From NCBI GenBank assembly GCA_964474825.1, contig CAYYWQ010000001.1, positions 549,609 through 613,608 on the forward strand: 64,000 nucleotides of DNA. The letters run 5' to 3'. Position 1 is the first letter of the stretch, and the number at the start of each line of letters is the position of its first letter. This document shows positions 6,006 to 8,649 of this stretch, piece after piece. A model generated the notes under the pieces. The model had not been told where the DNA came from. It searched no databases and saw only the letters and a list, made by a program, of their open reading frames with translations. Source of the DNA: an uncultured Candidatus Saccharibacteria bacterium (lineage in GTDB: Bacteria > Patescibacteriota > Doudnabacteria > UBA920). The translations under genes and the position numbers were made by a program.

Positions 6006-6218
6006 CTACTTAAAACTTTTTAATTTGTCCGCCAAATCATCTAATATTCTTTTTCGTATCTCCTCCCCAATCATTTGGCAATGCTCGCAAACCTTTAAGT
6101 GGTTAGTTATTTGCAAATCCCCCTCCACAGCATCATTTGTCGCAAAATAAGCCTTTAGCATTTCAGCAGATGGATGTTCTTTATATTCTTCATTAAGCTC
6201 TGTTCCTGTTTCAGACAT
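6006..6218 (-). CDS. Small zinc-finger protein with HxxxCxxC (ZAS-like anti-sigma) motif
   Basis: 70 aa starting from the internal Met MSETGTELNEEYKEH…HLKVCEHCQ…. The longer track ORF 6006..6356 reads through the tRNA gene (GSNPT artefact), so the start was moved to 6218. Confidence 0.4.
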   Translation of the reverse strand: MSETGTELNEEYKEHPSAEMLKAYFATNDAVEGDLQITNHLKVCEHCQMIGEEIRKRILDDLADKLKSFK

Positions 6219-6232
6219 TTCTCTAATTTTTC

Positions 6233-6307
6233 TGGCTGGGGCGGTAGGATTCGAACCTACGAATGGGGGCTTCAAAGGCCCCTGCCTTACCGCTTGGCGA
6301 CGCCCCA
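6233..6307 (-). tRNA. tRNA-Gln (anticodon UUG)
   Basis: The reverse complement folds as a cloverleaf: acceptor TGGGGCG/CGCCCCA, anticodon stem GGGGC/GCCCC with loop CTTTGAA (anticodon TTG), T-arm GTAGG-TTCGAAT-CCTAC, and an encoded CCA. Confidence 0.85.
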
Positions 6308-6527
6308 AAGCGATATTATCTCTGCTTATTCTACCAAAAAGCCTGATTTTTATCAATCCTTAAAAATATCTTAAAATCGCCGTTACCCCGGTTCTTTGAT
6401 ATAATGGTTGCAATGGTCATCTTGGTGCATGACTCAAAACTTTAAGAATTAGAGCAAGCTATTCATATAACACAGAAGAATTAAGACATAAAATTTTGCA
6501 GCAACTGCTTTAGAAAATTTTAAACTT

Positions 6528-7337
6528 ATGGAAAATAATAGCACACATTTTGTGTTTGATGGAAAAAATATCGTAATATCTCCAGACCTACATCTGATTA
6601 TCATTTTTTTACAAGAAATTGAAAAAGAAATTGAAAGCTTTTTGGGCTTTGACAAACAATTAGAATCTATAAGAAAGCAATACCTTGAAACAATAAATTT
6701 TGTACAATTCCTTGCTGATAAACTTAAAGAAAATTCTATTAATTTTAATTATACACTTTCAGAATCGCCAGAAAAAATTGGAGAAAAACTAAAGATTGAC
6801 AGACCAATCCGCTCAGAGATGATTGTTTTATTTGCCTACTTGGAAGTATTATTTCGTTTTAACTGTGCTTATGAAAACAAAACGTTTGATGATAATGAAA
6901 TTAGAAAATTGGCAATGAATCAGGATATAACGAAAACATTTATAAAAAATTTTTGTTTAAATCCTAAAAATGAATGGGGGAAAAATAACCCAGATAGACT
7001 TAAACACATCACTGTAGATAATTTAAGAAGGCTTAGAAACTCTCTGACACATTTTTTTTCAGTAAATAGCGGGCTATCTGTGGTTCATTCTCAAGCCGAC
7101 GAAAAGGCAAGAAAATTAGAGGAGGCGACGCATTTTAAAGCAGTATTTATTTCACCAGAAGATTTATATGGAATTATAAAAGGAGTAGCTAAATTAATGA
7201 TTGAAGAATGGAGTGATGATTGTAAAAAGTGCATTGTCGAAAACTCGGATGATTTTAAAGAAAAAATTTTGTGTATAAAAAATTTAGTTAATAACACTGG
7301 TTCCATAGTAATAAAGAATGGGGAAATTAATATATAA
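6528..7337 (+). CDS. Hypothetical protein with RNxxxH (HEPN-like) motif; possible Abi-like nuclease
   Basis: 269 aa on an AT-rich islet. NLRRLRNSLTHFF matches the HEPN Rx4-6H (RNxxxH) signature. No other recognisable domain. Confidence 0.35.
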   Translation: MENNSTHFVFDGKNIVISPDLHLIIIFLQEIEKEIESFLGFDKQLESIRKQYLETINFVQFLADKLKENSINFNYTLSESPEKIGEKLKIDRPIRSEMIVLFAYLEVLFRFNCAYENKTFDDNEIRKLAMNQDITKTFIKNFCLNPKNEWGKNNPDRLKHITVDNLRRLRNSLTHFFSVNSGLSVVHSQADEKARKLEEATHFKAVFISPEDLYGIIKGVAKLMIEEWSDDCKKCIVENSDDFKEKILCIKNLVNNTGSIVIKNGEINI

Positions 7338-7348
7338 GAATATCTATT

Positions 7349-7996
7349 ATGAAAATAAAAAAAATACTATTTCCGTTCTTAAAATATAACTCATTCTTGA
7401 AAGATAAATGGTGGCACAGGCTTTTTGTAGTTTTTTATAACATTACGGTTGTGGCCTTTTTAATTGTAGCATTTTTTGTTGCCTATTCTAGCATAAGTGA
7501 AACTCCTTTTAACACAAAGATAATAAACAACTTACGAGATTTTTCCAAAAACTCTGATAAGTCAATGGCTAATACCGTGCCGTCATTCTTAAAGCAGGGA
7601 CAAAAGATAGGTTGTTTCGAAGATGGAAAATATAATTATGTATCAACTTATTCATTACAACATGAAACTTTTTGTAGCTCAGACTTATCAAGCCACCTTG
7701 ATGAAGCGGCTCAAGTAATTATGGGGGACGACTCGCTTACATTTGAAAGACGCAAAGAGGCTCTTTCGGAGGCATTGACTAATGACAAGGAAAAAAGATA
7801 CTGTTTTATTAGAAAACAAGGCGTCGATTGTTTATCCAATAATATTATTTCTTACAACAAAAACATTATATTTTATTTACAAGTTATTGCTTCTTCCTTT
7901 TTGACAGCTTATTTATTTTCATTGTTTTTACAACTTTTATATTTTAAAGGTCTAATTTATATAATTTACGGGAAAAAACCGCAGTTGGACAATTAG
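7349..7996 (+). CDS. Hypothetical membrane protein (TM segments near both termini)
   Basis: 215 aa, starts 12 nt after the preceding gene in the same AT-rich islet. Hydrophobic segments at residues ~22-46 and ~170-200. Confidence 0.5.
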   Translation: MKIKKILFPFLKYNSFLKDKWWHRLFVVFYNITVVAFLIVAFFVAYSSISETPFNTKIINNLRDFSKNSDKSMANTVPSFLKQGQKIGCFEDGKYNYVSTYSLQHETFCSSDLSSHLDEAAQVIMGDDSLTFERRKEALSEALTNDKEKRYCFIRKQGVDCLSNNIISYNKNIIFYLQVIASSFLTAYLFSLFLQLLYFKGLIYIIYGKKPQLDN

Positions 7997-8066
7997 GCCA
8001 TTTGGACGATTTTTGTTACAAAATTTTCCCACAAGGACAGCCAAAAAATATTTATTTGCAATTACA

Positions 8067-8095
8067 AAAGACCAGCCAAGTGGCTGGTCTTTTTA
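8067..8095. terminator. Bidirectional terminator between convergent genes
   Basis: agaccagcc-aagt-ggctggtct hairpin flanked by A- and T-runs. Confidence 0.7.
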
Positions 8096-8100
8096 AATAT

Positions 8101-8649
8101 TTAATTAAATTGGTACATTCTTTCTGAAACTTGCTTTAGTCTTTTGCGGGCGCGGTATTGCAGGACTCTTACGGCTAAGGTGTTTTTATTTAAGACTTTG
8201 GCTACTTCGCCTACGGAAAGTTGTTTAAAGAACCTAAGCTCAAGCACTTTCCTGTAACGCGCGGAAAGATATTTAAAACAGGAGCGGGCGGTTTCCAGGT
8301 CTGACTCTGTTTGCATGGTCTTTTGCAAAGACTTGTTGTCAGGCAAGTCAAACCCTTCGTCTATGCTTATTACGTCCGGCCGGCTGTATTTTTTGCGGAG
8401 CTGGTCGTTAATGGCGTTGTTGGCAATAGTGTAAAGCCAGCCGCTAAAATTTATTTCCCCGGGGCGTAAATACGGCAGGGCTTTATAGCTCTTAATAAAA
8501 ACTTCCTGCAACACGTCTTCCGCGTCCTGGTAATTTTGGATTTTTTTTCTAATATGGAAAAAAATCCTTTTGGCGAAAGAGTTGTACAGTTCTTCAAAGG
8601 CAGCCAAGTCGCCGTTTTTTGCTAAAAGCGCAAGTTGGTTAGTTTCCAT
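8101..8649 (-). CDS. ECF-type RNA polymerase sigma factor (sigma-70 regions 2 and 4)
   Basis: 182 aa with a region-2 segment (…EDVLQEVFIKSYKALPY…, SGWLYTIANNAI) and a region-4 HTH (LSVGEVAKVLNKNTLAVRVLQYRARKRL). Confidence 0.85.
   Translation of the reverse strand: METNQLALLAKNGDLAAFEELYNSFAKRIFFHIRKKIQNYQDAEDVLQEVFIKSYKALPYLRPGEINFSGWLYTIANNAINDQLRKKYSRPDVISIDEGFDLPDNKSLQKTMQTESDLETARSCFKYLSARYRKVLELRFFKQLSVGEVAKVLNKNTLAVRVLQYRARKRLKQVSERMYQFN

Follow-up and report, generated by a model that had tools for sequence, protein, structure and literature searches.

What is the role of an AT-rich pair of genes lying between a tRNA gene and a sigma factor gene in an uncultured Candidatus Saccharibacteria bacterium? 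The pair is located in a stretch of 64,000 nucleotides (assembly GCA_964474825.1, contig CAYYWQ010000001.1, positions 549,609 to 613,608 of the forward strand; hereafter the window) and consists of two plus-strand open reading frames, ORF1 and ORF2. A first-pass annotation of the letters alone had proposed that the two genes form an abortive-infection cassette, in which a HEPN-like protein is paired with a membrane partner. The analysis described here leads to a different answer. ORF1 probably belongs to a new, uncatalogued family of effectors with an R-x4-H motif that are linked to restriction-modification (R-M) systems, and in the window it is a solo copy of uncertain activity. ORF1 and ORF2 are not a conserved system; ORF2, a mobile membrane protein unrelated to ORF1, is a bystander. 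The relevant parts of ORF1 are as follows (AF2, AlphaFold2):

6528..7337, plus strand: ORF1, 269 aa, solo copy of an undescribed family that is R-M-linked elsewhere (ORF list, homolog clusters, R-M neighbourhoods)
6528..6794, plus strand: N-terminal module of ORF1, residues 1-89, a beta-hairpin and a 50-residue helix (AF2 model)
6795..7334, plus strand: conserved core of ORF1, residues 90-269, mostly helical, with R95, Y115, N148, R170, H175, S209 and D212 (alignments A1, A2 and A4; core-only AF2 model)
7035..7052, plus strand: R170-N-S-L-T-H175, the invariant R-x4-H motif, at the C-terminal end of helix 163-174/176 (sequence, alignments, models)

A search of 5.8 billion clusters identified 135 clusters of ORF1 homologs, nearly all of which are 265-271 aa long and none of which is functionally named. 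Moreover, an exhaustive profile search of 1.84 billion representatives returned only 217 proteins at E<=1e-3. Neither ORF1 nor ORF2 has a usable match in Pfam, NCBIfam, PADLOC or PHROGs, in agreement with the earlier remark that neither protein could be placed in a recognised family. A P-loop or ABC match was not found in ORF1. The RNxxxH motif from which the defence proposal started is indeed present in ORF1 (DNLRRLRNSLTHFFS; R170 codon at 7035-7037, H175 codon at 7050-7052). Alignment A1 comprises 33 family members with 42-68% identity; R95, Y115, N148, R170, N171, L173, H175, F176, S209 and D212 are among its invariant positions. With the most distant members (21-31% identity) added in A2, an alignment of 24 divergent sequences, N148, R170 and H175 are the sole invariants, R95 and Y115 are conserved in at least 90%, and the asparagine following the motif arginine is usual but replaceable by C, S, H or G. 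Since R170-x4-H175 is invariant down to 21% identity, the R-x4-H motif is the core signature of the family and not a chance match. Furthermore, the distant members align to profile positions ~90-265 alone; thus, the conserved core lies here, preceded by a variable module of ~90 residues at the N-terminus. The module is shortened in some members, and 7 of the 24 divergent members (P0284, P0286, P0292, P0294, P0299, P0300 and P0302) open with a SEC-C zinc motif (GRNDPCPCGSGKKYKxCY) that replaces the N-terminal hairpin of the window protein, which itself has no zinc motif. PADLOC matches of distant members to PDC-S12 and E2 were rejected because their coverage was limited to the SEC-C motif.

Where do the relatives of ORF1 reside? 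At 19 of the 30 independent ORF1 loci, a DNA methyltransferase (MTase) and/or a restriction/helicase subunit (Res/HsdR) is encoded within a few co-directional genes. One of the remaining loci has RhuM alone and another has an AbiU2 HEPN gene directly upstream of the ORF1 homolog (ORF1h). The R-M systems are of type I, II, III and IIG, with the following gene orders:

Type I: HsdM-(x)-HsdS-ORF1h-(RhuM)-HsdR (L005/L006/L026, L009, L027, L032)
Type II: EcoRI-MTase-ORF1h (L008)
Type II: MTase-MutH-ORF1h (L001/L002)
Type III-like: MTase-OLD-Res-ORF1h (L003/L004/L023)
Type III-like: MTase-ResIII-ORF1h (L016)
Type III-like: MTase-NYN-ResIII-267aa-HARE-HTH-ORF1h (L045)
Type IIG-like: SNF2 helicase, 1204-aa Eco57I/MmeI methylase, 205-aa protein, ORF1h (L041)

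Several further loci show the simpler order MTase-ORF1h, and at L009 the ORF1 homolog and hsdR overlap by 4 nt. Among 108 neighbours at 22 loci, a Pfam census counted N6_N4_Mtase 9 times, ResIII 8 times, DEAD 5 times, N6_Mtase and SWI2_SNF2 4 times each, and RhuM, Methylase_S and the HsdR domains 3 times each; the top families are all R-M families.

Some of these neighbourhoods hold additional features. L045 (468-7093) is a multi-effector R-M island, which encodes an MTase, ResIII, an NYN-domain RNase, an uncharacterised 267-aa protein, HARE-HTH, the ORF1 homolog and an uncharacterised 426-aa protein. RhuM-family genes directly adjoin ORF1 homologs in three independent loci (L005/L026, L025 and L028), once inside a type I operon, which suggests that RhuM and the ORF1-family accessory genes share one insertion niche. 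At L036 (6343-6990), in a metagenome-assembled genome (MAG) of the Gammaproteobacteria, a shortened 219-aa ORF1 homolog has a genuine AbiU2-type HEPN gene directly upstream (motif FSVRNKVLAHRD; PF18734), and two R-x4/5-H proteins are therefore adjacent.

The ORF1 family is concentrated in the Candidate Phyla Radiation (CPR)/Patescibacteria, where its named hosts include Saccharibacteria, Magasanikbacteria, Jacksonbacteria, Paceibacterota, Staskawiczbacteria, Moraniibacteriota, Minisyncoccia, Peribacteria and Gracilibacteria. Further hosts are one Bacteroidota MAG, several Gammaproteobacteria MAGs, Lysobacteraceae and Bdellovibrionales. The distribution of the family is patchy and horizontally spread. 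Relatives of ORF1 or ORF2 were not found on IMG/VR viral contigs, INPHARED phages or PLSDB plasmids. The homologs of two Gracilibacteria loci (L031, L037) and two Peribacteria loci (L038, L040) fall into 2-3 pieces under translation table 11. The Gracilibacteria copies are read through with code 25 (UGA = Gly), as expected for this lineage, and recoding, masking or pseudogene formation may account for the Peribacteria copies.

The family of ORF2 is a separate one, with neighbourhoods of its own:

7349..7996, plus strand: ORF2, 215 aa, a membrane protein with two transmembrane (TM) segments (ORF list, hydropathy, homolog clusters, alignment A5)

The hydropathy profile places the hydrophobic segments at about residues 25-45 and 173-207, confirming the earlier description of a membrane protein that has TM segments near both ends; ORF2 starts 12 nt past the last base of the ORF1 stop codon, again as described. 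The 37 homolog clusters of ORF2 are characterised by an invariant KWWHR before TM1, four conserved cysteines in the central domain, which is probably extracytoplasmic, and a C-terminal TM segment that ends in YFKGLIYIIYGKK. A cassette that recurs in CPR (L010-L013, L044) comprises an Xre-type helix-turn-helix protein (65 aa), an uncharacterised protein of 185/186 aa, the ORF2 homolog (ORF2h) and a small ORF, and it is followed by an SDH/S49-type protease in L010, L011 and L044. The nearest homolog of ORF2 (68% identity) is encoded in a cassette of a 186-aa protein, ORF2h, a 69-aa protein and an SDH protease. The ORF2h cassette (L010, 5234-7808; L012, 5237-7002; L044, 101-2476) looks like an uncharacterised conserved module itself. 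The ~185-aa gene preceding the ORF2 homologs was tested as a cryptic relative of ORF1 and rejected. In a second context (L014, 1071-10081; L015, 1374-9761), ORF2h is part of a co-directional run of unannotated genes coding for 263, 217 and 194 aa, DUF6804, ORF2h, 266, 237 and 383 aa. A serine recombinase gene lies beside this run in L015 and an AbiEi/AbiEii pair follows it in L014, which suggests that the run is the cargo of an integrative element.

What could the ORF1 family do in its R-M neighbourhoods? Like PrrC, the HEPN-type anticodon nuclease of the type Ic system EcoprrI at the prr locus of E. coli, and like its relative RloC, the ORF1 homologs are encoded co-directionally inside R-M operons. 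In the type I loci L005, L009, L027 and L032 they adjoin hsdR, after hsdS, and prrC has the same placement between hsdS and hsdR in the prr locus. ORF1 and PrrC also both have a C-terminal helical domain with a conserved arginine and histidine, and both are distributed sporadically by horizontal spread. However, ORF1 lacks the ABC-ATPase N-domain of PrrC and has a hairpin-plus-helix N-terminus, and PrrC is larger. Sequence similarity to PrrC or RloC was not detected in ORF1, nor did PADLOC, which presumably includes models for both, report a match. Moreover, the ORF1 homologs are found beside type II, III and IIG systems and not beside type I systems alone. R-M linkage of the PrrC/RloC kind applies to the family and not to the window copy, as R-M components are absent from the entire 64 kb. 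The catalytic His356 of PrrC lies beyond the length of ORF1, and EcoprrI keeps the PrrC RNase silent until the phage anti-restriction peptide Stp activates it (PMC1484252). A further parallel is provided by RAZR, a single-gene abortive-infection defence protein with a zinc-finger and HEPN architecture (PMC13017515). The distant ORF1-family members resemble RAZR/PD-T7-4 in that they pair a zinc module (SEC-C) with a putative RNase core (R-x4-H). In contrast to ORF1, RAZR carries a Cys4 zinc ribbon, and its motif, R146-x7-H154, is part of a DUF4145 domain; neither a DUF4145 match nor homology to RAZR was detected in ORF1.

The reading that we tentatively prefer, although it falls slightly short of being probable, is that members of the ORF1 family are latent nucleases, probably RNases using R170 and H175, that are co-expressed and transferred together with R-M systems and serve as a second-strike or addiction module. 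Catalysis would be performed by Arg170 and His175, aided by Asn148, Arg95 and Tyr115, in the same way as HEPN enzymes use R-x4-6-H. Such a protein would stay latent and become active on RNA once DNA restriction fails, providing a second defensive line or acting as an addiction toxin, in the manner of PrrC with EcoprrI. Oligomerisation or sensing would be the part of the variable N-terminal module (hairpin and long helix here, SEC-C in distant relatives). Because the R-M partners are of four types, independent sensing by this module seems more plausible than a restriction enzyme masking the protein physically. ORF1 of the window would be a copy that has strayed from the R-M operons in which this horizontally mobile accessory gene normally resides and that now stands alone, and ORF2 would have come from another mobile cassette and landed beside ORF1 in this genome only. 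If latent nucleases are indeed coupled to R-M systems in this way, they would constitute an uncatalogued second-strike module that Pfam, NCBIfam, PADLOC and PHROGs have missed entirely. Furthermore, the linkage to four R-M types would favour a general backup of restriction by RNA or DNA damage over a one-to-one masking complex of the PrrC style.

Several observations weigh against the latent nuclease, many of which concern the assignment of ORF1 to the HEPN proteins. At least 16 HEPN clades are linked to R-M systems, and an analogy with PrrC has been proposed (Anantharaman et al. 2013). ORF1 shares with R-M-linked clades such as Abi2/Swt1, DUF4145, AbiU2 and Apea-like the small single-domain build, the R-M or defence-island neighbourhood and an R-x4-H motif with an asparagine after the arginine at a helix end. 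The AF2 models, which are confident (full length, pLDDT 87.2 and pTM 0.83; core only, pLDDT 92.0 and pTM 0.86), agree that helix 163-174/176 ends with the motif, which is followed by a loop, with long helices before and after. The position of the motif at a helix end, its R-M setting and its invariance in all 33 close and 24 divergent members, within the R-x4-6-H spacing of HEPN proteins, fit a HEPN protein. In contrast to the HEPN clades, ORF1 has a beta-alpha-beta insertion of ~35 residues after the motif helix, and every homology and fold test was negative. Sequence-profile searches of the PDB with A1 and A2 found no HEPN protein, Foldseek against the PDB gave best E values of 0.48 (full length) and 3.0 (core) without HEPN entries, and a search of BFVD with the ORF1 model returned nothing. 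With hhalign, the probability was <1% both for the single AbiU2-like HEPN neighbour at L036 and for a family of 20 AbiU2 sequences built from it. Scanning each member of A1 and A2 against Pfam gave weak matches to HEPN_Apea (4 of 33, E>=0.44) and HEPN_Cthe2314 (1 of 24, E=0.0058), which were discarded as noise because they did not reappear when the concatenated members were scanned. No test of homology or fold links ORF1 to any nuclease, and the libraries Pfam, NCBIfam, PADLOC and PHROGs likewise give nothing. In addition, about a third of the ORF1 loci have no recognisable R-M neighbour. Silencing of the PrrC kind may not apply, since four R-M types are unlikely all to mask one small protein, and as the window has no R-M gene, ORF1 acts here alone or not at all. 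The defence proposal of the first-pass annotation has survived in part: ORF1 is not a housekeeping gene, its family is patchy and occurs overwhelmingly in an R-M context, and R-x4-H is its most conserved feature, but its HEPN membership is unproven. A rival that we regard as less likely than the nuclease is an R-M accessory whose fold is new and not of the HEPN type, with a role other than that of an RNase and an R-x4-H that only mimics the HEPN signature. The protein might bind DNA or proteins as an adaptor, regulate restriction, sense anti-restriction proteins or cut DNA as a DNase. Such a fold would agree with the very confident models that lack any structural neighbour in the PDB, HEPN included, with the lack of profile similarity to HEPN families and with the beta-alpha-beta insertion, which is not typical of canonical HEPN domains. 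A marginal similarity of the C-terminal tail to the SAP-like C-domain of MANF points the same way. This match of the A2 profile to MANF/ARMET (E=0.013; ORF1 residues ~205-257, window 7140-7300, including W-x-x-x-C-K-x-C) was itself rejected and is probably compositional, because the matching cysteines (CxxC) are not conserved in the ORF1 family. An unlikely, more far-reaching version holds that the family is a new R-M-associated effector whose fold is absent from the PDB and whose R/H/N/Y site evolved independently of HEPN, and that it is a main second-line defence module of the CPR/Patescibacteria, working with type I, II, III or IIG systems or alone. These bacteria rely mostly on R-M, and their antiviral repertoire is thought to be sparse.

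The remaining explanations concern the islet as a whole. A two-gene abortive-infection cassette, with ORF1 as a HEPN-like RNase and ORF2 as sensor, anchor or co-effector, is very improbable, and as a conserved system it is largely refuted. ORF1 and ORF2 are probably co-transcribed here, since they are co-directional, 11 nt apart, AT-rich and followed by one terminator, and pairs of HEPN and membrane proteins exist in other systems, for instance Cas13b with Csx27/28. However, tblastn and family hidden Markov models on six-frame ORFs uncovered no co-occurrence of the two families at 30 independent ORF1 loci or in 4 independent ORF2 contexts. Apart from the window itself, the two families were found together solely on two identical read-assembly contigs (L042, L043); thus, the pair is specific to this genome. 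The nearest homologs belong to different operons, that of ORF2 to the protease cassette and the closest ORF1 homolog on a long contig (66%) to a type III-like R-M operon, and the families are of unequal size (135 versus 37 clusters). The window cautions that a neat pair of a toxin and a membrane partner can be a chance juxtaposition of two mobile genes. It is also improbable that the islet is inert, horizontally acquired debris, in which ORF1 and ORF2 are detached, non-functional and decaying. Decay would be in line with the strongly atypical composition, with the lack of an R-M system in the window and with the separation of each ORF from its usual neighbours, but both ORFs are full length and have lost none of the residues invariant in their families, the retained promoter region is plausible and the terminator strong, and the identical sequence is present in two independent read assemblies.

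The islet and its boundaries are made up of the following elements:

6233..6307, minus strand: tRNA-Gln, anticodon TTG, left boundary of the islet (ARAGORN)
6357..8065, no strand: AT-rich islet, GC about 0.30 (composition profile and sliding-window statistics)
8066..8093, no strand: hairpin followed by a T-run, likely a shared terminator (inverted repeat I5 and RNAfold)
8101..8649, minus strand: extracytoplasmic function (ECF) sigma factor gene, right boundary of the islet (Pfam Sigma70_r2 and Sigma70_r4_2)

ORF list, ARAGORN, Pfam and composition all agree with the layout given by the first-pass annotation, namely two AT-rich plus-strand genes between tRNA-Gln and the ECF sigma factor gene in surroundings whose large ORFs are nearly all on the minus strand. 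The atypical composition was also correctly recognised. The GC content of 6357-8100 (1744 bp) is 0.300, compared with a mean of 0.426 for the window (SD 0.031 for stretches of the same size); this stretch is the minimum of the 64 kb, and equally low stretches make up 0.08%. The GC content drops to 0.27-0.31 over 6400-8200, and both ORF1 (0.288) and ORF2 (0.309) are AT-rich. The hairpin has a 12-bp stem and a 4-nt loop (dG -19.6 kcal/mol) and lies between ORF2 and the convergent sigma factor gene. It was not flagged by a simple terminator scan and is likely the terminator common to the ORF1-ORF2 unit and the sigma factor gene.

The flanks of the islet are ordinary chromosomal genes: proB/proA/proC, a cupin, DUF2784, EamA and a small H-x3-C-x2-C protein on the side of tRNA-Gln, and the ECF sigma factor, a response regulator and a PAS-GGDEF-EAL protein on the other side. 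The adjacency to the tRNA gene had been counted towards the pattern of small anti-phage islands; as a signature of integration it is not supported. The islet abuts the 5' (promoter) side of tRNA-Gln, where a sigma-70-like promoter match on the minus strand (6356-6328) would drive the tRNA gene; the flanks contain no integrase, and no att-like direct repeats surround the islet. Synteny of the flanks with other ORF1 loci was not found, and cupin and EamA genes near other ORF1 homologs were tested as conserved synteny with the window and rejected. Close relatives of the flanking sigma factor did not turn up in the metagenome collection.

A side observation concerns the small protein next to the tRNA gene. 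Its ORF of ~70 aa (6006-6218, minus strand) begins ~15 nt past the 3' end of tRNA-Gln and has no Pfam match at E<=1e-3, and its H-x3-C-x2-C sequence (NHLKVCEHCQ) is the signature of zinc anti-sigma (ZAS) factors. The ECF sigma factor gene (8101-8649) lies on the same strand at the other side of the islet. Since the two genes flank the islet, it may, perhaps together with the tRNA gene, split the sigma factor from its anti-sigma partner.

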